Positions 345 to 33,685 of a DNA stretch of 64,000 nucleotides are shown one piece after another. Position 1 is the first letter of the stretch; every line of letters begins with the position of its first letter. A program made the position numbers and the translations under genes. Origin of the DNA: a virus (lineage: Duplodnaviria > Caudoviricetes); the IMG/VR virus record IMGVR_UViG_3300043672_000039, positions 9,187 to 73,186 of that record. One strand, given 5' to 3'. The notes below the pieces were generated by a model. It was given only the letters and a program-made list of their open reading frames with translations, made no database searches and was not told where the DNA came from.

Positions 345-779
345 ATGCGCAAAATGAGGTTTTCTGATACCCTCTCGGACATGACTACGAAAGAGAAACT
401 GTTGGAATTTCAGAAAGATTTTCCGGACGCGAACTACTCCGAATTGGCGCGTAAAGCGGGGTGTTCAAACGTAAACGCGCAGGTTCATTTGGACCCGGTG
501 TATCGAGCGAAAAATCGGGTGTCCAACCGTGATTTTTTACGAAAGAGATGTGAAAAAACCAAGCGGCTTTTGGTGGAATTTTTAGGCGGGTGTTGTTACA
601 CATGTGGGTATGATACCGATTTTCGTGCCCTCGATTTTCATCATAAAGACCCGTCACAAAAAGTTGCGCAGATTACCAATCTGTTGTCCGGTAAAATAGA
701 AAACGCAATCGACGAAGCCCGTAAATGCGTTCTTCTCTGTTGCCGTTGTCACCGGGAGCTTCACGCAAAGGAAATTTAA
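345..779 (+). CDS. HNH endonuclease (T7 gp7.7-like)
   Basis: CYTCG...LDFHHKDP...CVLLCCRCHRELH. Confidence 0.85.
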   Translation: MRKMRFSDTLSDMTTKEKLLEFQKDFPDANYSELARKAGCSNVNAQVHLDPVYRAKNRVSNRDFLRKRCEKTKRLLVEFLGGCCYTCGYDTDFRALDFHHKDPSQKVAQITNLLSGKIENAIDEARKCVLLCCRCHRELHAKEI

Positions 780-12336: not shown

Positions 12337-13161
12337 ATGGCACTAAAACCTACAAATCTTTACATTCAGATGGCACCGTTGCCCGCGACCTTCAAAGGGA
12401 GCCCGCAAGATTTCGCGGTTGCCATGGTGCAACGTATGAAAATTCTTTCGCCCAACGGAACGAATTTCATTTTCATTGGCGACGTTGAGCCTATTTCCAA
12501 TGTCGGTCCGTGGTTGCGCGGCGGCACTCAATGGTGGGTCTGGGATGAGAATATCAAGCGATATGTTCCTCTCGATATCTCCGCGTCCGAGACGCGATGG
12601 TATTGGATGGGCGCGAGCACCCCGACGAGCACTCCTCCGCAAGTGTGGCTGAAGACGACGAAGGACGCGACGGACCAAGACCCGAGCCATGGCGAGCCGA
12701 TTGGCTGGTATGTGTTCGATGGCACTACTTGGAATCCTTTTATCGGAATCGTGTTGAGCGGTTCGACTGCGGACCGTCCGACTGGCGGAGTTGAATATCA
12801 GCAGTATTATGACACGGATATCGCTGTCCTTATCTGGTGGGAGCGGGGGCAGTGGAGAACGGTTTCCGGCGTTCCCGGCGATATCAAATTTACTGTGTTT
12901 GAAGTGCTGACGGACGCTCTGCGGTTCAATCCCGGCTGGGAAGTTCTCGGTGCTGGCAATCAATCTTTTCGTGGACGTATTATCGTTCAAGCGGCGAAGG
13001 ATTCAGGAACGTCACCGGAAACGGTGCTTACGGTTGGGGCAAATATCACCCCAAGGCAAGCTCTAGAAACTTTTGGCGAAAGTGATGGGATCAAAATCGA
13101 TAATGCGTCCACTTTAAAATATCCCGGGACCCTCGCTTGCTGGACTCTGGTAAAAACATAA
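12337..13161 (+). CDS. Putative tail protein
   Basis: Trp-rich ORF in tail module. Confidence 0.5.
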   Translation: MALKPTNLYIQMAPLPATFKGSPQDFAVAMVQRMKILSPNGTNFIFIGDVEPISNVGPWLRGGTQWWVWDENIKRYVPLDISASETRWYWMGASTPTSTPPQVWLKTTKDATDQDPSHGEPIGWYVFDGTTWNPFIGIVLSGSTADRPTGGVEYQQYYDTDIAVLIWWERGQWRTVSGVPGDIKFTVFEVLTDALRFNPGWEVLGAGNQSFRGRIIVQAAKDSGTSPETVLTVGANITPRQALETFGESDGIKIDNASTLKYPGTLACWTLVKT

Positions 13162-13163
13162 AA

Positions 13164-13739
13164 ATGCAATCGGTTTTTATCTATTCATTGAACGATCCGA
13201 TTTCGGGGCGGTCTCGTTACATTGGGAAAACTGCCAATCCCACAATCCGGCTAGATCAGCACATTCGAGAGTCTCGAAAAATTAAGAAAAACTACCACAG
13301 ACTAAACTGGATTCGTTCTCTGGGTTCACGAAATTTAAAACCGGTGTTTGAAATTTTAGATGAGGTTCCAGCGTTGGAATGGGAATTCTGGGAATGCGAA
13401 TATATTCGTCTCTATAGAATTCTAGGTTTTAATTTAACAAACTCCACGGATGGAGGAGAGGCAGGCCCTTCTATGAAGGGAAAAAAATTATCTCTGGAAC
13501 AGTGCGCGAGTCGTGTTGGTAATAAGCGGAGATTAGGAATTCCGCATACCCCGGAGAGCAAGGCCCGAATCAGCGCCGGAAGTCGAGGACACAAAAAATC
13601 TCTAGAAACGCGGGCGCGGATGAGTGCCTCTTTGCGAGGTAATACTCGTTTTGTTGGCCAGTGTTTGTCAGATTCGCACAAACAAAGGCTATTGGAAGGG
13701 CACCGTAAGTGGCGGGATTCACTCGTCAAAACCCCTTGA
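13164..13739 (+). CDS. GIY-YIG homing endonuclease with NUMOD3-like repeats
   Basis: FIYSL...RYIGKT...RL..H, E..YI, HTPESKARIS / KSLETRARMS repeats. Confidence 0.85.
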   Translation: MQSVFIYSLNDPISGRSRYIGKTANPTIRLDQHIRESRKIKKNYHRLNWIRSLGSRNLKPVFEILDEVPALEWEFWECEYIRLYRILGFNLTNSTDGGEAGPSMKGKKLSLEQCASRVGNKRRLGIPHTPESKARISAGSRGHKKSLETRARMSASLRGNTRFVGQCLSDSHKQRLLEGHRKWRDSLVKTP

Positions 13740-15189: not shown

Positions 15190-15864
15190 ATGCCAGTAAG
15201 CACACTCAACGGATGGACTAGCTCGGGATTACTTCCGAGCAGCACGGTCGTTTCACAAATTCTCAGCCGCGCGGGTTCAGGGGCGCAAGCCGCTCCTCCG
15301 CCGGGCTCCGTTCCCCCGCCTGCGGGCGGTGCGGCGTCCCCTCCGCTTTTCGGCGGGCTCGGAGGCGGTGCAACTACTCCCGGGGCTGGTGGATATCAGC
15401 CGTTACCTTCCGTGCCGTCCCGTCAGCCGCCCGGGTTTGGTGGGGGAGCCGGACCCGGATACGGAGATGTGTCCGGTGGACGAGGATGGGTGAATCCGTC
15501 ACTTACTCCCGAGCAAGCTTACTCTCAGTATTTGCAATGGCGAGGGTTCGCAGATACTACGACTCCTTTGCAGGCGAATATTAATGCGATGGTCGGGGCT
15601 CAGGGGGCCTTAGCGTATAGTAGCGCCGGAGACCCGAACCGAAATGGATTGAACTACGATCCATACGGCGCCACTTTGCGAGCGAATCTCGCGGCTCAAA
15701 TGATGGGTGTTCAACGTGCCTCGCCGTATGCTTATTCATATGGAACTCCGGCGGCTCACGCTCCGGCTCCTCAACCGGCGGGCGGATACGTCACCGGTTA
15801 TGGGGCTCCTCCACCTTCTCCCGGTGGTGGATTCGGATTCAGTGGCGGTGGATTCGGTTTCTAA
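15190..15864 (+). CDS. Pro/Gly/Tyr-rich low-complexity protein, probably internal virion
   Basis: Composition and position between ejection genes. Confidence 0.5.
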   Translation: MPVSTLNGWTSSGLLPSSTVVSQILSRAGSGAQAAPPPGSVPPPAGGAASPPLFGGLGGGATTPGAGGYQPLPSVPSRQPPGFGGGAGPGYGDVSGGRGWVNPSLTPEQAYSQYLQWRGFADTTTPLQANINAMVGAQGALAYSSAGDPNRNGLNYDPYGATLRANLAAQMMGVQRASPYAYSYGTPAAHAPAPQPAGGYVTGYGAPPPSPGGGFGFSGGGFGF

Positions 15865-17372: not shown

Positions 17373-20300
17373 ATGCCGGACCCCATCTCAATAGGGGAGT
17401 CGGTTCAACTGACTCCTGACCAAGTTGCACAGTTGCAACAACCGGCGGATGCTTTTCCTGTCGGCTCGCAAACCGTTCTAAATTCAGAACAGGCCACAGA
17501 AGCTCGCAAGCAATCCGGCCATTTCGATCCGTTCACTGATTTTACCGCAGAGCAACTTGCGGAGTTGCATCATCAATCCCCGGACTTCAAGCTTGTCGAG
17601 TCTTACGCGCCGCGCAGCGATTTGCAACAGGTGCCCGGGATGAATCAAAAGGTAGCTGACGCATATAGCATGCTCCGGCAGCGAGGAGACTTCGGGGCGC
17701 AACTCGATATCAAGAAAGTTCCCGGCCAGTTGTTCGACATCGCCAAAGGCTTTGGCAAGCAAGCTTGGAATTACGCGCAAGCGGTCGCGACCCCGGTCGG
17801 TGCCGCAATCGCGGATGTTGCCGGTGCTTCGCCGGAAACGGTTTCTCGAATGTTCGGTGAGGGTCAACGACAAGTCGCGGAGAACGTCGCCGGAACGGAA
17901 GCCGCGTTGCAAGGTCTGGGCAAAACTGTTGGCGCGGGCTCAGAGTGGATCAAGCGCCGTCTCAAACTTTCGAAACCTCTCGCGGAATTTACGCCAGAGG
18001 AGAAAGTTGCCGACTTGTTCGATGCGGTTCGGTCTCATAAACAGCTTCAAGAAATATCGCGCGGTCAGGGTCCGATACTTCAGACGGTTGGCTCTGAAGT
18101 TGTTAAGCAGCTTGAGGATGCCGGAACCCCTGTCCGTCCAGAGGAAGTTCAGAAGCTCGCTGCCGGTGATCCGTTCTCATGGTATTTGATGGGCAAAACT
18201 TTCTCCGGCGCGGGAGCCCTCGTTCCGGAAGCCGTCGCGTCACGCGCGGCTCAAGCCGCTCAAGCGGCGGGAAATTTCGCCGCGAAAGTTGGCGGTAAGA
18301 CCGTAGAAACTGCCGCAGACGTTACCCGACTCGGGCTTGATGCCGCCGCCGTGGTTGCGCCGACTGCCGCCGCTGTTACCGGCGCGGTGAAGGGTGGAAC
18401 CCACGGCCCTCTCGGCGTCGTCACTGGGGCAACCCTCGGTTACAAAGGCGGACAAGTTATTGCTAGCGGGCTCCGCAAAGGTGCGACTACGGCAGAGAAA
18501 GTCTCTCAAATCGGCGAGCAAATCTCCGGCGCTAAGCCTGTTATTTCACCCGTGGCTCAACTCGGTCGAGATGTGCTGCAATCTTCGCCTGCGGCAGTCG
18601 GGGAACTGGGAAAAGGCGTCGCGTTCGACCTTGGATTAGCCGCCGTTACCAGCGAAGAAACCCCGGAGGAACGCGCCGGGCTCGGAATCGGCACCGCCTT
18701 TGGTGCTCTCGGTGCCGGACGCCGCGTTGCCGGGCATGTGGTAAGCGGTCAGATCATCGCGCCGCGTGAATACGGCGTTAAACAAGTCACGCCGTCCTCT
18801 GGACAATTTCCGACTCTCGACGCCATGCACACCGCCGCGATTGCGGACGCCGCCCCGGGAGTTGCCGCGCGATTGAACGCAATTCGTTTGTTTACGAAAG
18901 GCGCGTCACCGAACACAGACGTTTTTCTGGCGAAGGATGCGCCCGCGATGGAATCAGCGTTGACGCAACTCGGCGTTTCGCCGGAGCAGGCTAAACAAAT
19001 CTCTGCGCAAGAAGGATTTTTTACCAAATCAATCCCCGGCAAGGACGGCTCGGAGCGCCGGGTGATTCTTGCGACCAATGTTGAGTCGGCCCCGCATGAA
19101 TCTTTTCATGCAATTCAAGATGTCCTCGGTGAATCAGCGAACCGAGAGATTGATAAAATGGTGCAGTCCGCTTATACACCACGCTGGGAAAATGAAGGAA
19201 ATACTTATGCTCGACGACTTGTTGGTTTGTCCGGTCTGCAAAATAAAACTTGGCGAGAAGCAATCCTCGACGCTTCCGGCTGGGGCCGTGCAGAGGCCGC
19301 AGATAAGCTTGCGCGAGATGCAGAAAATCAAATCAATACTGCTACCGGAGCCGTTGCCAAACCCTCTGACGTTTCCGCAATGGCTGAAGGAGAGTGGGGA
19401 CGCCTTCTCGCTGATGCTGCCAAGCGAAATCCCGGAGTCCCGGTTGATGAATTGCAAAATAATTTATGGCGCGACGTGCTCACTCCCCAAGAGGCTCACG
19501 ATGTCGGAGACCGATACCTCGCCCGTGAATTAGCGGCGGAGAATTTCGATGCGGTGTTTAAACACGGACTCGGCGGAGACTCTGGTTTGATTCCGAAACT
19601 CGCCCGAGTTGTCGCTAACGTCACGTCAGCCCTAGGCGGGGAGCCGCTCTCCGGTCGAACCAGTGAAATCGGAAATGTCCCTCTTAGTTATGATGTCGTC
19701 AACGCAGTTCGCGGGATACGCCCGGTTGTTGAGCCGAAGGGCAATGTTGCAAAACCAGTTATATCGACCGGGAAGTCTGCCCAAACCGTTCCGACCACTC
19801 CTGAAGCGCAGCAACAAGCCGCAGAGGAAGCCCGAGCCATCGCCGCAGAAGCCCCGGACGTAATTCCGCCTGCGCCGACCACACCAGTTCCGCCGAAACC
19901 GGGCCAGCCTGCTCCTACCCCGCTCCCTACCGTTGCGTCACCGCGAGAACTGCTCGGCAAAATCGCCGAAGCGATTGCAACCCGCTCGGGAGTGAAGATT
20001 AATTACTCCTCGGCTCCCGGAGAGCCCGCCGCTTCGATTACCAGCACTCGACCGATTCGCCGTTCCGTCATAGAAGCCTTTCGAACCATGCCGGAAGCTG
20101 CTCGCGCATTGTGGGAGAAGAATTTTTTCCCGGAGCGCGTCATCAAAACGAAATCCGGATATCAGGTGCTAGGCTGGGCTCCGGAAGTTTTCGCGGCGAA
20201 TGCGCACAAGCTCGCCGGAACTTTAATCGATGCCGGGGTTGCATCGCCCTACGAACTGAACCCGGCTGAACGTTCCTTTTCTTCGCAGGGTTGGCAGGAT

Positions 20301-23300
20301 TTGTATAATGATGTCGCGACCTTCGTAAACAATCAGATGGGCGGACGGACTGGCGCGGGCGGAGAATTGAACGTCCCGAAATCGATTACCGCGCAAGGTT
20401 ACACCGCTCCTGCTGTGACTGGTGCCCCGGAGCCGATTGATCAACGGAAAGCGGATTTCATCAACATGCTTTTCCATTTCAAACTTCCGGAGACCCCGCG
20501 CATTACCTCCGGCAAGCTGCCATTGAATATCGCCGGGCAGGAAGTCAGCACGGCAACTCAACCGGGACGGTTGGTGTCGCCCGTGACCCCGAGGGCTCCT
20601 TACAGTGGAGCATCCGCCGAGAAACTTGGTATTTCCGGACGAGAAATTTTGGAGACGAATCCTCTCCGAAATGAAATCGAGCAAGCCGCCGCGTCGAAGG
20701 GAATTGATATGCCTTCGATGATCGAAGCAATTCAGCGGCTCGACCTTGCGCATATCAAAGAAGTCTCTGGCGCACCAGAGTTGCCACAGTTTCGAGGGAA
20801 CACTCTCACCCTTACCGGTGGTTTTCAACCGGCATCAGAGGCAATCACCAAAATTCGAGACGAGTCGTTTTGGAATTCAATCAAAAATTACTCTGGGAAG
20901 TTTGGCGGCGGAATTACCGGATGGGCTTTCGAAGTTGGCGCGTCTGCTAAGACTCCGCAAGACGTTCAAGCGTTCCGAGATGCGAACCGGGAGTGGGGAG
21001 AACTCGGGCGCGAAGCCATGCGAAACAAGGATTACGATTCTGCCGCGCAGTTGCTTACTAAAGCACAGGCCGCGCGTGAAGCGTTCGAGGTTGCGACCGG
21101 CCAAAAAATCGACGGCTCTGGCGGCGCTTCTGGCGCGTCCGACATGATGCGGTCGAAAGACCCGAATTACATTCCGCCAGTTTTGGAAAAACCGGAGTTG
21201 CTCGGTCAGGCGCAGCCTAAAAATCCGGAGGTTGAAAAAGTGGCGGAGGAATACCTCAAAGGTAAGTCATTCAAGCCAATGGCTCCGCGCATTGTTCCTC
21301 TCAACGCCGAAATCGCCAAGGACATCGCTGATTATTACGACCAAGCCAAGTCGGAGCCCGCAAACCCGGCGGTGTTGAACTCTTACAACGCATTATCGGC
21401 GGAAACTATCGATCAATACAAGAAAATTATCGATGCCGGATATAAAATTGAGCCGTGGACGGACAAAGGCGAGCCTTACGCCAACAGCGCGGCAATGACG
21501 GCGGATGTAAGAAACAACAAACACCTGTTTTTCAAACCGACTGGGTCCGACATCAAGGGCGAAAACCTGATGCTGCGCCCCTCGGGCATCGAGAAATTCA
21601 ATATCAACGATATTTTCCGCGCAGTGCATGACTTTTTCGGTCACGCCAAGGAGGGGCACCAGTTCGGACCGCAGGGAGAGTTGAACGCGTGGAAAGAACA
21701 CTCCGCGATGTATTCGCCGGAAGCTCAAGGGGCTCTCGCGGCGGAGACTCTGGCGCAAAATAGCTGGGTGAACTTCGGAAAGCATCTACGCGATGAGGCT
21801 GGAAATGTCCCGCTCAAGGGAGCCGCAGGTTTTCAACCGTTGGCGGAGCGTCCGTTCGCTGATCAGAAAAACATTGTGATTCCGCCGAACCTCATCGATC
21901 TAGCGCGTGAGCAAGTTCCGATTGAAGACGCGCGGACGACGAGACGTTTCGTGCAAACGCTCGGCCAAGCGCAGCCCGCACGAGATGTGCATGAAGACTT
22001 TTCAGAACGTTACGACCGACAAGGATCGTCCCTCCTCGATGAGTTTAAAAAATCCCCCCACGGGGAGATTTCTTGGGACAAAATTCCTGCGGCCCGCCTT
22101 AAAAAAATTTGGTTGGATTATGGGAAGACCGGGGTAGTGAGAGACGAGAAAGGTTTAGAGAAGATCGCCGACAAGATGTTGGACAACATCGCCCGGTTTT
22201 CTGTGACCACTGATCTGAGTGGGCACACGCCGAATGACCCACAAATGGTGGCCGAGGGACTAGGGCATACGCTGCCATCTGGAGGGGGTGAAGAAGGAAA
22301 ACCTCCGGTGAATGAGGACTTCTACAACTGGCTCGGAGATAAGTTTTCTGATTTTGGGCTTCGTCCCTTGCAGATGGCATACGAAAAAATTTACTCCGCC
22401 AAATCGGCAGAAGAAAAACTTCAAGAAATCGATAGGGCTTTGAATATCGTCCATCAACGTTCTGACCTAGCGGGAGTGTTTGTGGAGGGAGGGTCGAAAA
22501 CTCTCGATGAGATCGCCTCTCAGGGGGGTTACGCTCCTCATTCCAAACCTACTAACAATGATTACATCGGATACAAAGGGCAGTTTCAACCGAAAAAAAA
22601 AGAGGAGGAATTCAAACTGCGCCCGGCCTCGTCCGGGTTCAGCAAAGCTTGGATTCTGCCGGACGGCACTCCGGTTCAGCTTGGCGGGCAATGGCATCAC
22701 GATTGGTTGAACGAAGCTACCGCCATCCGGAAGCAATACGGAATCAAAAAAGGCACCGCCGACGAGGATGACACCCGCTCGGAAGCGTTGCGCAAAGGAT
22801 TTTCTCGAATCAATTACGATGCTCGCACCGGTTCTCTGACGGTGGAAGTTCGGGAGAAAGACTTGGACAACTTGCGCGGGCCGCTCACCAAGTTTATCGA
22901 AACGAATCTGCCGCAGATCGACAAGATTCAAATGTATCTGTTCGACAACAAGGTGTCTCATGTTGCCGACTCCGGGTTCGCAAACCTTTTCGACAAACCG
23001 AAGGCCGAACGCATGGCGGCGATTCCGTTCCTATTCGCTCCCGGGGATATCACCGAGGTATCCCCCCAAGCTACTAAAGGAGCCTTGAGCGAGCAAGCTG
23101 CACCGGGGGCGATGCCGGTTCGTGGTCAGTCACAACCGAAGAAATCCGACGAACTTTATTACATAACACCGGAGAAAAATCTTCCGAATATATTGAAAGA
23201 GGGAATCAAACCGGCAAAGCCGAAAGACTTCGATGATGAACATGCCGTGTATTTATTCCCGGACAGGGCACACATGGATGATGGGGTAGCTAATTGGCTG

Positions 23301-24632
23301 GCAGATAGGTATCCGGAAGATACCCGGCTCGTTGCGATTAAAGTTGATCCGACTGGTTTAACATTTGAACCGGCGGTTGTTGATTGGGAAGTGAAGCACA
23401 AAACTACGATACCCGTTAAAAATATTCTCGGGCATGAATCGTTAGACGATTATCCGGCACCTTTTTTTCCGAATAAAAAGGCAATGAAATTTTCTGGTCA
23501 GTCTCAACCTCCCGCAGAGCAGAAAACGTTTGAAGAATTTTCTGGAAAAGAACCGCTAGGGACGATGGCTCTTTCGAACATGACAAAGGACGAAGTCTCA
23601 AACTATTATCCTGAAGCCGTCATCGCGCGAAAGAAATTCGACCCGATTCCTTCTGAGATTGCCGACTCTCCGCTCGCCAAACAGGCCGGAGACGAGACCA
23701 AGGCAATCAGCGCCTACGCTGACAAGCTCGTTGATTTCGCGAACGAATACAAAGATGACCCGAGCTTTGCAGAGGGTGCGGACTGGTATCGAAAGTTCGT
23801 GCCTCAGTTGAAAAAGCAATTTGGAAAAGATTCCTCCGTCATGGCGGAGCTTCTCGCGGCGACGAGTCCTCGGACAGATGTCGCGTCTAACTTTGCCTAC
23901 GCTCTTGACGCGCTCGAAGGCATGCGCTCCGGACGGTTCGCAAAACAGGTTGCGAAGTTCGAAGAAGGATTGCGCAAACTCGAAGGCGAGAACTGGCGTC
24001 CGTGGTATGACAAGGAACTGAAGGCCGGGAACATTCCCGCGCCGCCTGCGGAGCCGACTCCGGCAGCTTTTCTCGAACACTGGATCGCGACGTATGACCT
24101 GAAGCCCCGGCAAAGCAACGGCAAACTTTATGGAACGCACTCCAATCGAATTTTGCAGGTGCTCGCGCGACGTTGGGTCGATTTGAATACCGGTCCGAAG
24201 ACGCGGACCTTCGTCAGTAATTTACTCGGAACCGGTCACGATGCAACCATCGATGTCTGGGCAGACCGAACCATGCGCCGTCTCGGGTATCAGGATTTCT
24301 CCGACCGTTGGCGAATACTCCCGCAGAACGCCGCGCCGGTTTCCGACACCGATTTTCATTTTTCCCAGAAGGCTTTTGCCGCCGCCGCCAAACGCCTCGG
24401 GATGAAACCGGACGCGTTGCAAGGTGCCCTCTGGTTTGCAGAGAAAAAGCACTGGGCAAAAAACGGCTGGGCACGACTTGACTTAGGGAGCTTTTCGAAG
24501 GAGATTACAAAAGTGCCAATGTTGCGCCGTGGTATCGAGCAACGGTCCGCCGTTAGTAAGCTGGTCCCTAAAGGCCCTGCTGCGACGACCGGCGAACTCG
24601 GTTTCAGCATTGAGCCCCGAAAGTATAAATGA
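17373..24632 (+). CDS. Large polyvalent internal virion protein (zincin, metallopeptidase-like, ART-like and HhH-like modules)
   Basis: 2419 aa. HESFH at aa 575-579 with downstream ELAAENF, FRAVHDFFGH, ART-fold-like module, WY...LAATSP...GPK...NL.G...TIDVW, and six GQxQP-type linkers. Confidence 0.75.
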   Translation: MPDPISIGESVQLTPDQVAQLQQPADAFPVGSQTVLNSEQATEARKQSGHFDPFTDFTAEQLAELHHQSPDFKLVESYAPRSDLQQVPGMNQKVADAYSMLRQRGDFGAQLDIKKVPGQLFDIAKGFGKQAWNYAQAVATPVGAAIADVAGASPETVSRMFGEGQRQVAENVAGTEAALQGLGKTVGAGSEWIKRRLKLSKPLAEFTPEEKVADLFDAVRSHKQLQEISRGQGPILQTVGSEVVKQLEDAGTPVRPEEVQKLAAGDPFSWYLMGKTFSGAGALVPEAVASRAAQAAQAAGNFAAKVGGKTVETAADVTRLGLDAAAVVAPTAAAVTGAVKGGTHGPLGVVTGATLGYKGGQVIASGLRKGATTAEKVSQIGEQISGAKPVISPVAQLGRDVLQSSPAAVGELGKGVAFDLGLAAVTSEETPEERAGLGIGTAFGALGAGRRVAGHVVSGQIIAPREYGVKQVTPSSGQFPTLDAMHTAAIADAAPGVAARLNAIRLFTKGASPNTDVFLAKDAPAMESALTQLGVSPEQAKQISAQEGFFTKSIPGKDGSERRVILATNVESAPHESFHAIQDVLGESANREIDKMVQSAYTPRWENEGNTYARRLVGLSGLQNKTWREAILDASGWGRAEAADKLARDAENQINTATGAVAKPSDVSAMAEGEWGRLLADAAKRNPGVPVDELQNNLWRDVLTPQEAHDVGDRYLARELAAENFDAVFKHGLGGDSGLIPKLARVVANVTSALGGEPLSGRTSEIGNVPLSYDVVNAVRGIRPVVEPKGNVAKPVISTGKSAQTVPTTPEAQQQAAEEARAIAAEAPDVIPPAPTTPVPPKPGQPAPTPLPTVASPRELLGKIAEAIATRSGVKINYSSAPGEPAASITSTRPIRRSVIEAFRTMPEAARALWEKNFFPERVIKTKSGYQVLGWAPEVFAANAHKLAGTLIDAGVASPYELNPAERSFSSQGWQDLYNDVATFVNNQMGGRTGAGGELNVPKSITAQGYTAPAVTGAPEPIDQRKADFINMLFHFKLPETPRITSGKLPLNIAGQEVSTATQPGRLVSPVTPRAPYSGASAEKLGISGREILETNPLRNEIEQAAASKGIDMPSMIEAIQRLDLAHIKEVSGAPELPQFRGNTLTLTGGFQPASEAITKIRDESFWNSIKNYSGKFGGGITGWAFEVGASAKTPQDVQAFRDANREWGELGREAMRNKDYDSAAQLLTKAQAAREAFEVATGQKIDGSGGASGASDMMRSKDPNYIPPVLEKPELLGQAQPKNPEVEKVAEEYLKGKSFKPMAPRIVPLNAEIAKDIADYYDQAKSEPANPAVLNSYNALSAETIDQYKKIIDAGYKIEPWTDKGEPYANSAAMTADVRNNKHLFFKPTGSDIKGENLMLRPSGIEKFNINDIFRAVHDFFGHAKEGHQFGPQGELNAWKEHSAMYSPEAQGALAAETLAQNSWVNFGKHLRDEAGNVPLKGAAGFQPLAERPFADQKNIVIPPNLIDLAREQVPIEDARTTRRFVQTLGQAQPARDVHEDFSERYDRQGSSLLDEFKKSPHGEISWDKIPAARLKKIWLDYGKTGVVRDEKGLEKIADKMLDNIARFSVTTDLSGHTPNDPQMVAEGLGHTLPSGGGEEGKPPVNEDFYNWLGDKFSDFGLRPLQMAYEKIYSAKSAEEKLQEIDRALNIVHQRSDLAGVFVEGGSKTLDEIASQGGYAPHSKPTNNDYIGYKGQFQPKKKEEEFKLRPASSGFSKAWILPDGTPVQLGGQWHHDWLNEATAIRKQYGIKKGTADEDDTRSEALRKGFSRINYDARTGSLTVEVREKDLDNLRGPLTKFIETNLPQIDKIQMYLFDNKVSHVADSGFANLFDKPKAERMAAIPFLFAPGDITEVSPQATKGALSEQAAPGAMPVRGQSQPKKSDELYYITPEKNLPNILKEGIKPAKPKDFDDEHAVYLFPDRAHMDDGVANWLADRYPEDTRLVAIKVDPTGLTFEPAVVDWEVKHKTTIPVKNILGHESLDDYPAPFFPNKKAMKFSGQSQPPAEQKTFEEFSGKEPLGTMALSNMTKDEVSNYYPEAVIARKKFDPIPSEIADSPLAKQAGDETKAISAYADKLVDFANEYKDDPSFAEGADWYRKFVPQLKKQFGKDSSVMAELLAATSPRTDVASNFAYALDALEGMRSGRFAKQVAKFEEGLRKLEGENWRPWYDKELKAGNIPAPPAEPTPAAFLEHWIATYDLKPRQSNGKLYGTHSNRILQVLARRWVDLNTGPKTRTFVSNLLGTGHDATIDVWADRTMRRLGYQDFSDRWRILPQNAAPVSDTDFHFSQKAFAAAAKRLGMKPDALQGALWFAEKKHWAKNGWARLDLGSFSKEITKVPMLRRGIEQRSAVSKLVPKGPAATTGELGFSIEPRKYK

Positions 24633-25668: not shown

Positions 25669-26187
25669 CTAAGTTTTTCGGACCTCACTGGGAAGTTCAA
25701 TCTCGTGAGTCGCGTTAGCCCATTCCGGATTGAGAACCCAACAGACTTTTGGACCTTCACCGGGAAGATAGGTGGACACTTCGGCAACGGAATTTTCTGG
25801 GTCGAGCGCGAGAGGTATCAGCCAGTTTAAATTCGGAATGATTTCTTCCCGAGCATCGTAGAGCCATGTAAGGCGAACCTTCATTACCGGCTCATCCGTC
25901 ATGGATCGCAGCAAAGACTGCCCAAAAGATTTGTAGCACCAGACAACCCAGTCTCCGCCGTCCATCTTGCAAAAGTATTTCCATTTCTCCGCCGGGATAT
26001 CTGCGCCGGTTTCCTCTTTGAATTCTCGAACCATGGCATCGAGAGGAGTTTCACCCGGCTCGATGTGCCCGCCAATGCCGTTGAGTTTCCCCGCCTGCCA
26101 GCCGGGACGTTTCTTCTCGATGAGGGCCACTGTTTGTGGCTCAGAGCCTTCACTGAAAAGGAAGCCAACAACGTATTCAGTTTTCAT
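25669..26187 (-). CDS. Nudix hydrolase (MutT-like)
   Basis: Nudix box GGHIEPGETPLDAMVREFKEETG. Confidence 0.9.
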   Translation of the reverse strand: MKTEYVVGFLFSEGSEPQTVALIEKKRPGWQAGKLNGIGGHIEPGETPLDAMVREFKEETGADIPAEKWKYFCKMDGGDWVVWCYKSFGQSLLRSMTDEPVMKVRLTWLYDAREEIIPNLNWLIPLALDPENSVAEVSTYLPGEGPKVCWVLNPEWANATHEIELPSEVRKT

Positions 26188-27218
26188 CGATTGATTACCA
26201 AGTGCCCTTTCAAAATCTTTTTGTCCGATTTGAGATACGGCGTGTAATACCCTCGGGTAAAATACCGGTTAAACTCCACTCTACATCGGGTAACTGCACC
26301 ATCGTCCGGGTTAACTTTAAATTCAAGAATCGCACCGCCTACTTCCATACGCAATCGTTTTTTTCTCGCAAAAACCGTTTGGCTTTGGAATCCGGGCATA
26401 CTGATCACATGCACATTGCGTTCTTGCATGTAGTTACTCACATGGTAGTGCCCCTGAATAAGGATCGCAGGTTTCTCTCCCCCCTCCAATGCCTCAACTT
26501 GTTTCTGACCGGTATAGGATCGCGCGTAAGCGGAGCCGCCGCCGGGGTGTTGAATCTTGATGATGGTGGACGCGCCGGTTTGCTTGTTCTTCAACTCGAC
26601 ATCGGCCTCGACGTGCCCGATATATTCCAAATCGGTGCGGCCTTGGTCTTTGGCGAGGTATCCAATGTAGCCGCCGATGTTAAACCCGGGAGCAAGCCAC
26701 GACTCGTGATCATCACCGGTGATAAAATAGGTCTTAATTCCCTTGCGTTGAGGATACTTATCCACCATATACTGTGCCTGTCCGTCAATAGTCGTTTCAA
26801 ATACGCTCGCACCGTTGATACGCGCGACATACCCATCAATAGGATTCCCCGCATGAAAAACAGTAGTGATGCCTTCCTTAGCAAATAAATCATACTGATT
26901 GTGTAGCTCAGTAAGGCACTCCTCTTTGCAGCAAAGGTGAGTGTCGGAGACGAGCCCGTAGCGAATCCAGTCACCACAGTCCACATTTTTCAGCGGGAGA
27001 TATCCGAATTCCGGCGGTGCGAGCTTCGCTTCTTCGGCGAGCTTCGGTATCGTGGGGTCGATTTCGCCCGGCTTGCCGAGTTGTTTCGCCTTGTTGATGA
27101 CGGAGTCGTAACTCCTAGCTAGGGTTGCCGCTATCACTTTGCTGGTTGCTCCCGCCGCGCGAAGGGCGACGAGCTTTGCGGTTTCTTCGACCGTCCACGG
27201 ACCTGTATTTAGTTTCAT
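26184..27218 (-). CDS. Calcineurin-like metallophosphoesterase with N-terminal Myb/HTH
   Basis: WTVEE..KL N-terminus, SDTH, AGNPIDG, GDDHE, QHP, GHYH motifs. Probable start 27218. Confidence 0.85.
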   Translation of the reverse strand: MKLNTGPWTVEETAKLVALRAAGATSKVIAATLARSYDSVINKAKQLGKPGEIDPTIPKLAEEAKLAPPEFGYLPLKNVDCGDWIRYGLVSDTHLCCKEECLTELHNQYDLFAKEGITTVFHAGNPIDGYVARINGASVFETTIDGQAQYMVDKYPQRKGIKTYFITGDDHESWLAPGFNIGGYIGYLAKDQGRTDLEYIGHVEADVELKNKQTGASTIIKIQHPGGGSAYARSYTGQKQVEALEGGEKPAILIQGHYHVSNYMQERNVHVISMPGFQSQTVFARKKRLRMEVGGAILEFKVNPDDGAVTRCRVEFNRYFTRGYYTPYLKSDKKILKGHLVINR

Positions 27219-27825
27219 TTTTGTTGGTATTCGGACTTGTTGGGAATGGGATACCGGCATTCAAAGCCTGTTCACGTTGTGCGAGCCATTCTAACATTTT
27301 AATCGGAAGTTCTCCCTGAAAAACTTGATCGAACGCGATGATCGCTTCAGCGGGGGACGTGCCCATGCCCGCGATGGTATTCTCCGGCGAGCCAGTGACA
27401 TCGCCGAGGAACGCTACCCATCCGGTGCCGTCAGAAGTTTTCTGAAGGATGGGGCGGAAACGAAAATGCGGGGACACGACTTCTTGCGCGGCGGCGGACT
27501 GATGCTTGAGCAATTCGATATTGTGATTCTGGATCAACTCCGCGCGGTGTTCCATGTCGTGCTGAAATTTCATTGAGAATCGGGCGGGGTCCGTGATGAT
27601 GCTATCGAGCCGGTTGCAAACATTGATGAAGGTCGCTTCAGCGGAATCGAGCACGTTACCACTTGGGTCGGAAGCTCCGGGAATTTTCTCCATATCCCGG
27701 AGAGGATTGAGCAACACCCCCATCAGCGTCCCCGCAATCGAGAGCAGGCTATTGATCTGAGTCGATGTGGTAGCGTCAGGGTGCGGTAAATTTTGGCTCA
27801 GGGCTAATTGATCTTTAGGACTCAT
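27115..27825 (-). CDS. Hypothetical protein
   Basis: Coupled to the RuvC-like gene, overlaps the next gene by about 100 nt. Confidence 0.5.
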   Translation of the reverse strand: MSPKDQLALSQNLPHPDATTSTQINSLLSIAGTLMGVLLNPLRDMEKIPGASDPSGNVLDSAEATFINVCNRLDSIITDPARFSMKFQHDMEHRAELIQNHNIELLKHQSAAAQEVVSPHFRFRPILQKTSDGTGWVAFLGDVTGSPENTIAGMGTSPAEAIIAFDQVFQGELPIKMLEWLAQREQALNAGIPFPTSPNTNKNETKYRSVDGRRNRKARRPSRGGSNQQSDSGNPS

Positions 27826-31705: not shown

Positions 31706-33685
31706 TTATTTACAATAAAAAGACACAACTTTAGCTTCGGCGGCAATTGGGCATCCCTCAAGCCAGCCCGGGCATACTGACATTATTTTTTCCACATCCG
31801 TCGCCGTAACAGAGGGATCGACTTCAAGAATCGCCTCATCATGCGCCGTGAAAAGGACCGTATCAGGACCAAAGGCATCCTCTAGAGCGACGAGATGGTG
31901 CCCGAATACGTCCCGCGCGGTAGCTTGGACGAGGTTCTCACATAAAATCCCACCGTAATAGGGCTTACGTCTGCCATCTGATTCTGCTGTAAAAATCGTT
32001 CGCTTTACCGGCTTTCCATTTTCATCCGGCTCGATTCGAATACTCGCCCGAACCCCCCGATATGTCATGCAGCGTCCGCTTGGCATCTTCATTACAAAGT
32101 CAGAAGCAATCGAGCGTTTAAACGATTGGTCGAGATCGCTCCAAAGTTTAGTCAACAGCGGGCTTTTTTCCCGAAACTCTTTCACAATTTCTTTACTACG
32201 CTTGCCGTAACCGGAAACCTTTTTCACTTCTCCGGTCACGGGGTCCAGAGATTCAATCCATTCCGGGTCGTCTTTTGTTATATCGATTCCGCCTGCCGCC
32301 GCGATTGTGATAAATTTTTTCCACGCGGCCTGATAACCTAGGCCGAGAACCATGATCTTAATCAATTTGTAGTAGTCACTGTCCTTGTCCATTCTCCCGG
32401 TCGCGGCGTATCCCATGTTAGCCCGGGCAAATGCTTCATACACTGATAACCCCCCTCGTATCATGTCGAGTAATTTTTGATTACCCGTAATCCACGCAAG
32501 AACCCGAGGTTCAATCTGTGACAGGTCCGAAGTGATCATTTTTTTCCCGGGACGAGGCACCAGCAGAGAACGAAAATCAAGAGAGTATTTTACCCATTCC
32601 GAAAGCTCGCCCGTTTTCTTTTTTGCACTCAACGCGGAATCGATTCGGGCTTCATTAGTTTCCATTAACCCTAGTTCATTCACTAGTAGAGGTTTCTTAC
32701 GCGGATTTTGAAGGTTGATTTTTTCCGCTCCCGACCATCGGCCCGTATGCGCACCAAAAAATTTTAATCCGAAAGGCATCGTGCCGTCGTCTCGCAACCG
32801 TTCTTTCATCAACATGAAAGTTTTATATAACTTGTTCACACTGCGCCAAGATGATAGCGCGGAAATCCATTTGTGCGTCTTGCCGTAAGTTGTTTCCCAC
32901 TCCTCAAATGCTTCCTCCCCCTCGTTCGCCTTCACCGGGGGCGAGGGAATACCGACGCGGCGGCACATTTCCGCAATACACTTCGTCGAAGTCGGCTTAG
33001 TGTTGAATTCATCCCACGATTCATCCTCCGCACCGGCCAGCCACGGCAGAACTTTTTCTGTATTGAGTTTTACCTCATGCGCTTGCACGATGTAATCATT
33101 CAGTAACGCGGTGTTGATTTGAATTCCGCGCATGCCTTGCGCAATCGTTTGATTGCTCAATCGTCGTTCGATCTCCGGCCATTTCGCGGAGTGATCGTTC
33201 CAAAGACGCCAGCACCAATAAGCATCGGAGCCGCCATATTTCAGCATGTCGGAACGTTCTTTCTCCGAGAAATCCTGCGGCCAACGTTTTCCGTCCGCAT
33301 TGGCGCGAACGGATTTATCAAGTTTGATTTTGTAGAGAAATTCCACCGCGTCCGAGAGTGCTCGCCGATTGCAAAGATACGCGGTCATGTTCGCCGTGCA
33401 TTCCCAACTTGAATACTTAATCGGAGGAGCTAATTTTCTTTTCACTAACTCGTTGAAAACGGTATGGTCGAAGTAGCTGTTATGACTGAGAAGCCTCTGT
33501 CCTTCGAGAGCCGACCAATTAAAATCCCTCGGATGCCCGACCCATGATTGAGACCCATCACAAACGGCAAGCAAGTATGCGTCGAACATTTCATGGGCAC
33601 AATATTGCTCCGCAATCATCTGCCGCAAACCAAACTTAAGTTTGGAACTGTAAAAGGTCTCGAAATCCACGGCCACATTATTCAT
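31706..33685 (-). CDS. polA: DNA polymerase family A
   Basis: Exo I VDFET, TGRWSG, motif A SDLSQIEPRVLAW, motif B K..VLGLGY, motif C HDE. Confidence 0.95.
   Translation of the reverse strand: MNNVAVDFETFYSSKLKFGLRQMIAEQYCAHEMFDAYLLAVCDGSQSWVGHPRDFNWSALEGQRLLSHNSYFDHTVFNELVKRKLAPPIKYSSWECTANMTAYLCNRRALSDAVEFLYKIKLDKSVRANADGKRWPQDFSEKERSDMLKYGGSDAYWCWRLWNDHSAKWPEIERRLSNQTIAQGMRGIQINTALLNDYIVQAHEVKLNTEKVLPWLAGAEDESWDEFNTKPTSTKCIAEMCRRVGIPSPPVKANEGEEAFEEWETTYGKTHKWISALSSWRSVNKLYKTFMLMKERLRDDGTMPFGLKFFGAHTGRWSGAEKINLQNPRKKPLLVNELGLMETNEARIDSALSAKKKTGELSEWVKYSLDFRSLLVPRPGKKMITSDLSQIEPRVLAWITGNQKLLDMIRGGLSVYEAFARANMGYAATGRMDKDSDYYKLIKIMVLGLGYQAAWKKFITIAAAGGIDITKDDPEWIESLDPVTGEVKKVSGYGKRSKEIVKEFREKSPLLTKLWSDLDQSFKRSIASDFVMKMPSGRCMTYRGVRASIRIEPDENGKPVKRTIFTAESDGRRKPYYGGILCENLVQATARDVFGHHLVALEDAFGPDTVLFTAHDEAILEVDPSVTATDVEKIMSVCPGWLEGCPIAAEAKVVSFYCK

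Follow-up and report, generated by a model that had tools for sequence, protein, structure and literature searches.

Which function could keep one short peptide motif at every internal boundary of a giant phage protein? The question is raised by the gene at 17373-24632 (+) of the window, by which we mean the whole 64,000-nucleotide (nt) stretch analyzed here, bases 9187-73186 of the 73,186-bp IMG/VR virus record IMGVR_UViG_3300043672_000039 (Caudoviricetes), a record rated complete. The reading frame is open and encodes 2419 amino acids (aa), in which an initial annotation had noted six G-x-x-Q-P linkers behind a zincin-type protease site and had proposed that they release separate effectors after injection, or else serve as joints for recombination. 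We find that the protein is built of a conserved chassis of ~1,150 residues (aa 1-1148) followed by six exchangeable modules, and that the junction motif marks every module boundary. On balance we lean, with reserve, toward a polyvalent virion protein for which these junctions would be cleavage sites, the most likely protease being the zincin that it carries itself. The parts of the protein are given below; the evidence named for a junction is the motif itself, the ends of high-scoring segment pairs (HSPs) in comparisons with homologs, or the AlphaFold2 (AF2) model with its per-residue confidence (predicted local distance difference test, pLDDT).

17373-24632, + strand: whole gene, 2419 aa.
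17373-18689, + strand: N-terminal part of the core, aa 1-439, conserved in ~115 homologs.
18690-19742, + strand: zincin-like domain, aa 440-790, with HESFH at 19095-19109 and the helix E719-x3-E723-x2-D726 at 19527-19550.
19755-19952, + strand: Pro/Ala-rich spacer, aa ~795-860, poorly conserved, with gaps in the conservation profile.
19953-20816, + strand: second conserved core domain, aa 861-1148, Arg-rich, ending in a ...FRGNTLTLT element.
20817-20831, + strand: junction 1, GGFQP, aa 1149-1153, end of the core; pLDDT <50.
20832-21203, + strand: module 1, aa 1154-1277, helical; cassette cluster 3 with 73 homolog segments; pLDDT >85 over aa 1155-1272.
21204-21218, + strand: junction 2, GQAQP, aa 1278-1282; pLDDT down to 49.
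21219-21962, + strand: module 2, aa 1283-1530, phrog_3170-like (7.2e-15); pLDDT >85 over aa 1280-1516.
21963-21977, + strand: junction 3, GQAQP, aa 1531-1535; motif, HSP ends and model.
21978-22577, + strand: module 3, aa 1536-1735, rare, its cassette being present in 2-5 homologs.
22578-22592, + strand: junction 4, GQFQP, aa 1736-1740; the folded domain begins 2 residues on.
22593-23123, + strand: module 4, aa 1741-1917, alpha/beta, with a WHHxWL element; cluster 4 with 73 segments; pLDDT >90 over aa 1742-1890.
23124-23138, + strand: junction 5, GQSQP, aa 1918-1922; motif, HSP ends and model.
23139-23495, + strand: module 5, aa 1923-2041, an uncommon cassette.
23496-23510, + strand: junction 6, GQSQP, aa 2042-2046; motif, HSP ends and model.
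23511-24629, + strand: module 6, aa 2047-2419, terminal, with DUF7178 (PF23802; phrog_3842) and the C-terminal tail ...SIEPRKYK.

All six motifs lie where the initial annotation had placed them, and the blocks they delimit measure 129, 253, 205, 182, 124 and 377 aa, in agreement with its estimate of about 125-375 aa. Five of the six read GQxQP. From the protein's own composition, 0.68 occurrences of G-x-x-Q-P and 0.03 of GQxQP would be expected, and we reject chance as the origin. GQxQP does not occur in any frame elsewhere in the window or in the initial 9.5 kb of the genome, where the capsid gene lies, and neither GQxQP nor a Q-x-Q-P of this kind is found in the capsid gene, the putative scaffold or the other called genes of the genome. 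The sole other G-G-aromatic-Q-P in any called gene is GGYQP at 15388, in a Gly/Pro-rich stretch of the open reading frame 15190-15864 (224 aa), two genes upstream of the giant gene; it may be due to chance.

The motifs coincide with the places where the family is rearranged. A search of 5.8 billion proteins gave 180 matches at E <= 0.001, and among the 120 of these that were listed (1,344-3,510 aa) the first ~1150 residues are common to nearly all and the C-terminal halves differ. The BLAST HSPs of these homologs end in clusters at aa ~1140-1180, 1260-1300, 1500-1530, 1720-1740, 1880-1940 and 2020-2060, which correspond to the six motifs. When 121 homologs were compared all against all, HSPs started at positions -5 to -1 and ended at 0 to +4 relative to the motif Pro, with 13.9 starts and 17.6 ends per motif compared with ~0.5 at a distance of 50 residues. 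Cutting the 121 proteins at their motif sites and clustering the pieces yielded 111 distinct architectures, with the core first in 116 proteins. DUF7178 is the last major module in 106/106 homologs that have it, and the middle cassettes may be present or absent, occur in up to three copies and vary in order, cluster 5 standing ahead of cluster 4 in 40 proteins and behind it in 6. The motifs had initially been described as separating sequence-distinct blocks, and this is borne out by the homologs, in which entire blocks have been gained, lost or put in another order with the motif as the exact boundary. Pfam recognizes GNAT, radical SAM, His_Phos_1, ART-PolyVal (6.5e-16), NAS-like methyltransferase, DUF3293 and DUF7178 domains in their C-terminal halves, and the ART-PolyVal, GNAT, radical SAM and His-phosphatase cassettes agree with the initial placement of the protein among the polyvalent proteins.

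Structure prediction points to the same boundaries. In an AF2 model of aa 1120-2110, based on a 32-sequence alignment, confident folds span aa 1155-1272, 1280-1516 and 1742-1890, and six of six motifs are located in stretches of pLDDT <50, between confidently folded blocks where these could be modeled. After motifs 1, 2 and 4 the next fold begins 2-8 residues further on. Modules 3 and 5 are poorly modeled because few homologs have them and the alignment is therefore shallow. Folded domains separated by low-confidence linkers that hold the motifs are what a segmented chain, as initially described, would lead one to expect. A seventh motif-like site, AGFQP at aa 1485-1489 (21825-21839), falls within module 2 and does not mark a boundary; it is part of a conserved G-F-x-P...ERPFAEQKN extension that is modeled confidently (pLDDT ~88). 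Cyanophages Mel-JY33 and Pag-Yong1 have polyvalent proteins that carry module 2 on other chassis, where no motif precedes it, and we conclude from this that the motif belongs with the chassis and not with the cassette.

Across homologs the junctions follow the consensus [A/G]-[Q>G,K]-[F>A]-x-P-[K/R] with a core of Q-(F/A)-x-P. The Pro is invariant and the F/A is conserved down to ~30% identity, and the stretch upstream of the motif is not conserved. The G-Q-x-Q-P form on which the initial annotation was based is thus real in this phage, and its definition was too narrow: it is the local dialect of one lineage within a family-wide Q-(F/A)-x-P. Junction forms include QFQP, QAQP, GFQP, KFQP, QFSP, QFAP, QFLP, QFMP, QFKP, QFEP and QFTP; the residue before the Pro is nearly uniform within a protein and varies between lineages among Q, S/A/T, L/M, K/R and E. 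The core-end junction, which lies beside the chassis, and the junctions downstream of it tend to speak the same dialect, as the following proteins illustrate.

L033: core-end GFKP; downstream QFKP five times and QFRP once.
P0033: core-end GFEP; downstream QFEP three times.
P0074: core-end GFLP; downstream QFLP four times.
L030: core-end GFMP; downstream QFMP four times.
P0136: core-end GFAP; downstream QFAP three times.
P0180: core-end GFTP; downstream Q/KFTP three times.
P0043: core-end GAAQP; downstream GQAQP six times.

Dialect concordance within a protein was 0.313 compared with 0.21 +/- 0.009 in shuffles, and in the 41 proteins with a non-Q core-end junction the same residue was found in 0.345 of downstream junctions compared with 0.101 +/- 0.029 (0/5000 permutations), both statistics being inflated by relatedness. 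On a tree of the core with 117 tips the dialect label changes ~34 times; the K/R, E and L/M labels are each found on separate parts of it, and the six K junctions of L033 arise within a Q clade. Such separate origins argue that many junctions have switched together more than once. This combination of uniformity within a protein and difference between proteins is, by analogy, the pattern displayed by the cleavage sites of viral polyproteins.

A different element occurs at the end of the chain. In most full-length members the sequence hydrophobic-x-[E/Q]-P-R stands 0-6 residues, usually three, before the C terminus (for example LVEPR, LIQPR or IEPRKLK), and the protein studied here ends in ...FSIEPRKYK (aa 2411-2419, 24603-24629). 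In its strict form this pattern is present in 65/167 proteins compared with a background of 1.3%, also where the last module is not DUF7178. The element resembles the junction motif and is independent of the dialect.

The joint switching of junctions could in principle take place in the DNA or in the protein. If the motif were a by-product of cassette exchange, a recombination joint of DNA microhomology with no function in the protein, exchange would be expected to fall exactly at the motif, as it does, and two site pairs within the gene (D1, D7) indeed share 12-14 nt. Beyond these, no repeats flank the junctions, and the six sites of this gene use differing codons for G, Q and P. Within a gene, junction codons are identical at a rate of 0.426 compared with 0.415 expected from codon usage (841 same-residue pairs, 23 genes), i.e., synonymous positions are free, whereas the Pro and the F/A are retained over large evolutionary distances. 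We therefore regard a joint at the DNA level, which the initial annotation had entertained, as very improbable, and its statement that selection acts at the protein level is supported. Since codon identity is not raised, as it would be by gene conversion or a DNA joint, concerted change needs a reader of the peptide that co-evolves with the motif. We also considered 2A-type ribosomal skipping, known to us only from eukaryotic ribosomes, and rejected it: the residues upstream of the motif are not conserved, and a mechanism of the host ribosome would not yield dialects that follow phage lineages.

The candidate reader within the protein is the zincin-like domain. HESFH (aa 575-579) and ELAAENF (aa 719-725) are present as initially reported, and within the family H575, E576, H579, E719 and D726 are invariant down to ~30% identity, A722 is also invariant and E723 is >90% conserved. 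HExxH followed by a downstream Glu suggests a gluzincin-like metallopeptidase domain, for which E719 and E723 are candidate ligands. The spacing of ~140 residues between HExxH and the Glu is long. An AF2 model of aa 440-790 (pLDDT 84.3, predicted template modeling score 0.79) contains, in model numbering, strands 77-81, 109-116 and 122-129, the HExxH helix 135-146 and a helix 266-291 with E280, E284 and D287. Zincins of polyvalent proteins, of which 12 clades are distinguished, are described as a three-stranded sheet, the HExxH helix and a later Glu-bearing helix, with long inserts possible between the helices (Iyer et al., 2017, PMC5512222), and the predicted model has this topology. When the zincin part alone was used as a phmmer query against 1.84 billion proteins, matches were confined to 127 clusters; where the matching protein is long, the domain starts at aa ~360-760, and the shorter matches look like fragments. 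Because this exhaustive search found only such clusters, the zincin is known only in this architecture. In the ESM Atlas, the zincin part was placed near LPD23, LPD1, ART-PolyVal and MuF_C clusters at 0.77-0.86, which we treat as leads only. The second core domain is strongly conserved (R893, R896, R897, E901, R904, R911, W935, N943, D980 and others, >=90%) and has no conserved His, Cys or Ser, which leaves the HExxH domain as the only protease candidate in the giant protein.

We propose that the motif [A/G]-Q-(F/A)-x-P, located in a flexible linker, is recognized by a reader that the phage itself encodes, in all probability the zincin of the same chain. Cleavage by this reader would separate the chassis from the cassettes and the cassettes from one another, be it within the capsid or once the protein has entered the host. 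The scissile bond may be Q|F/A, which would put a hydrophobic residue at P1', the residue preferred by thermolysin-type zincins. In its fuller version the proposal is that these proteins are effector polyproteins which process themselves, that Q-(F/A)-x-P is their cleavage code and can be read from sequence, and that its variable position co-evolves with the embedded zincin; this we put forward tentatively, as an idea that could well be right and that we trust slightly less than we doubt it. Cleavage, the bond cut, the protease responsible, packaging in the virion and delivery are all inferred.

A number of observations weigh against processing by the zincin. The support for cleavage is entirely comparative. 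N4 vRNAP, ArdC and TraC1 carry zincins of this kind, yet travel uncut (PMC5512222). If the cut were to fall between the variable residue and the Pro, the latter would be an unusual P1' residue. Mutual information between core columns and dialect revealed no clean partner residue, such as a charge swap, in a scan that had few non-Q sequences and was phylogenetically confounded. Some homologs carry variant active sites, namely HExxxH in P0090, P0153, P0154 and P0175, HDxxH in P0116 and P0148, and HDxxxH in P0178, and all of them retain junction motifs; P0116 (HDALH) is of the K/R dialect, and an HExxxH zincin has been described before (PMC5512222). The domain itself was not recognized by Pfam or by a search of the PDB with the family profile. 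A Foldseek search of the PDB with its model gave nothing at E <= 0.001 (best E = 0.4, the weak rows including metallopeptidase 4l7a and anthrax lethal factor 1j7n), and in VIA the scores stayed at Z <= 6.0, the only long alignment being to the Certhrax N-terminal domain (Z 5.2, root-mean-square deviation 4.5, 171 residues). Finally, that S78, S77 and ClpP-type head proteases (PF04586, PF03420, PF00574) have no match in the genome would speak for the zincin, but the PF03420 control also matched nowhere, and the absence of another protease is weak evidence because the genes of this phage are poorly covered by Pfam and PHROGs.

Two other readers of the peptide have to be weighed. The motif could be a recognition or docking tag at the N terminus of each cassette that is never cut, the protein traveling as one beads-on-a-string chain and the tag being bound by a phage partner, which might be a chaperone for packaging or for ejection, the channel of portal or tail, or a surface of the chassis. 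Dialects and protein-level selection demand a co-evolving reader, which is not necessarily a protease, and the position of the motif shortly ahead of the next fold is like that of a tag belonging to the downstream module. The uncut delivery of the N4, ArdC and TraC1 proteins fits this explanation, as does the C-terminal hydrophobic-x-[E/Q]-P-R element, which lies so close to the end of the chain that cutting there would free almost nothing. On the other hand, no partner for such a tag is known, independent enzymes such as GNAT, radical SAM, ART or phosphatase cassettes would be used more easily once freed, and an invariant HExxH...E site that is exclusive to this architecture would be left with no obvious substrate. 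We consider uncut docking unlikely, although it deserves to be kept in mind.

Alternatively, the junctions may be cut by another protease, an unrecognized phage head-maturation enzyme or one of the host, while the zincin acts on host targets or the cell wall. Head proteases of T4 and phiKZ do cut internal and ejection proteins at short motifs, and the retention of motifs in HDxxH homologs and the lack of a covarying core residue would both be explained. An effector role for zincins is also admitted by Iyer et al. (PMC5512222). This explanation is weakened by the confinement of the motif to a single gene, since head proteases normally cut head proteins too and neither the capsid protein, the putative scaffold nor any other gene contains it. 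It is also weakened by the lack of a head protease match, and by the core-end junction beside the zincin chassis sharing the dialect of the downstream junctions; a host reader, in turn, accounts poorly for switches between close relatives. We judge a separate protease to be distinctly improbable. Cleavage at the junctions by the protein's own zincin remains the explanation that we favor.

Little else in the giant protein could be assigned. Only DUF7178 (aa 2256-2356, 47.1 bits against a gathering cut-off of 27, E = 3.4e-12) and two PHROGs of unknown function, phrog_3170 and phrog_3842, are recognized. Fold searches gave no function for modules 1-5: with the 991-residue AF2 cassette model, Foldseek returned only weak Rai1 and methyltransferase rows (E ~0.2) and VIA only helical-bundle matches to the low-confidence module 3. 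Module 2, which has a conserved VHDFFGHAKEG element, is also found in cyanophage polyvalent proteins and mycobacteriophage genes. A search of the PDB with the single protein sequence gave only a faint phmmer match of aa 1921-1950 (23139-23228) to the Tpt1/KptA RNA 2'-phosphotransferase (E = 0.08), which, as a lead only, hints that module 5 may be an ADP-ribosyltransferase-fold cassette. In the chassis, a Gly/Ala-rich, moderately hydrophobic stretch covers aa ~275-460, with Kyte-Doolittle maxima of 1.2-1.5 at aa 317-343 and 407-426, and could be a membrane-active or channel-forming part. Conservation in this region is mainly at Gly positions.

The gene is the final and largest one in a late block on the + strand, downstream of the capsid and tail-fiber-like genes. 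The synteny of its neighbors is preserved in 16-32 of the 32 IMG/VR loci that are related (uncultured phage contigs of ~60-78 kb), and in none of these loci does a gene downstream of the giant gene begin with a junction motif. Pfam and PHROGs recognized almost none of the neighboring genes, a conserved 670-aa neighbor had no match in a search of known phages, and comparison with cultured and known phages gave no match at the nucleotide level and, at the protein level, only that of module 2. With neighbors almost all unrecognized and no DNA match to a cultured phage, the label of ejection protein used in the initial annotation therefore stands on gene position only, and it is from this position, as the last gene of a conserved late block, that we infer packaging in the virion and delivery into the host. 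The structural block also contains two free-standing genes of homing-endonuclease type, a GIY-YIG/NUMOD3 gene at 13137-13739 (+) between tail-block genes and an HNH gene at 345-779 (+). Just downstream of the giant gene, the opposite strand (25669-27260 (-) and 31706-33685 (-)) encodes a NUDIX hydrolase and a calcineurin-like phosphoesterase, with a family A DNA polymerase at a greater distance, and this marks the switch from the late block to a replication block.

How does this protein compare with known systems? Among the closest are the polyvalent proteins, in which one large phage or plasmid polypeptide joins 2-15 unrelated domains, among them conflict-type enzymes such as ART-PolyVal, GNAT, kinases and nucleases, and for which processing by an embedded zincin was proposed in 2017 (Iyer, Burroughs, Anand, de Souza, Aravind 2017, PMC5512222). 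The protein described here is likewise a giant multidomain product of a late/virion block with an HExxH + Glu zincin-like domain as its fixed hub, its chassis and six sequence-distinct modules form one chain, and ART-PolyVal, GNAT, radical SAM, His-phosphatase and DUF3293 cassettes occur in its homologs. It differs in having a defined junction code of four to six residues, lineage dialects and a fixed chassis, and in that its zincin is unrecognized by Pfam models and confined to this architecture; the 2017 paper names no cleavage or junction motif, and the word "linker" is absent from it. The class of protein and the idea of zincin autoprocessing are already published; the junction code is not described in the papers searched. 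In full-text searches we found no paper on QFQP or GQAQP in a phage context, on DUF7178 or on cleavage sites of polyvalent proteins. Few phage genes are as large, or as little understood, as those for polyvalent proteins, and the earlier cleavage proposal had no defined site. This family offers exact junction residues, a fixed chassis against which members can be compared, and dialects that amount to natural mutants of specificity. If cleavage does occur, the sequence would show where cassettes begin and end in hundreds of proteins of uncultured phages, and individual cassettes could be expressed in their natural mature forms; if it does not, the motif remains a conserved, co-evolving tag at every module boundary.

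Beyond the polyvalent proteins, cutting at short motifs invites comparison with three further strategies. In T4 and phiKZ, head proteases process virion-carried proteins at short motifs before delivery (L/I-x-E for gp21, S/A/G-x-E for gp175), a likeness that is known there and proposed here; they also cut capsid, scaffold and portal proteins, whereas the present motif occurs in a single gene and the searches for head protease families gave no match. In Vibrio and its relatives, MARTX toxins free their effector arrays by an internal cysteine protease domain. As proposed, the phage protein would work in a similar way, with a conserved chassis for translocation or processing, an array of effector cassettes that recombination exchanges, and a protease within the chain that cuts short sites between them. 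The two have no relation in sequence or fold: the giant protein matches no Pfam family for an internal cysteine protease or RTX repeats and its core has no conserved Cys, the protease here would be a metalloprotease, the carrier a phage virion and not a secreted toxin, and cleavage is a proposal. Polyproteins of RNA viruses, cut by enzymes such as picornavirus 3C or potyvirus NIa, have a site consensus of their own in each virus. With these the family shares a short site at each domain boundary that is uniform per genome and variable between lineages (PMC5512222), and differs in protease class, host domain and the site itself, here an invariant Pro with Q-(F/A) ahead. Should self-processing with a readable code prove true, phages would deliver a rapidly reshuffled set of enzymes as polyproteins, much as RNA viruses and MARTX toxins do, and the cut sites could be predicted from sequence alone.

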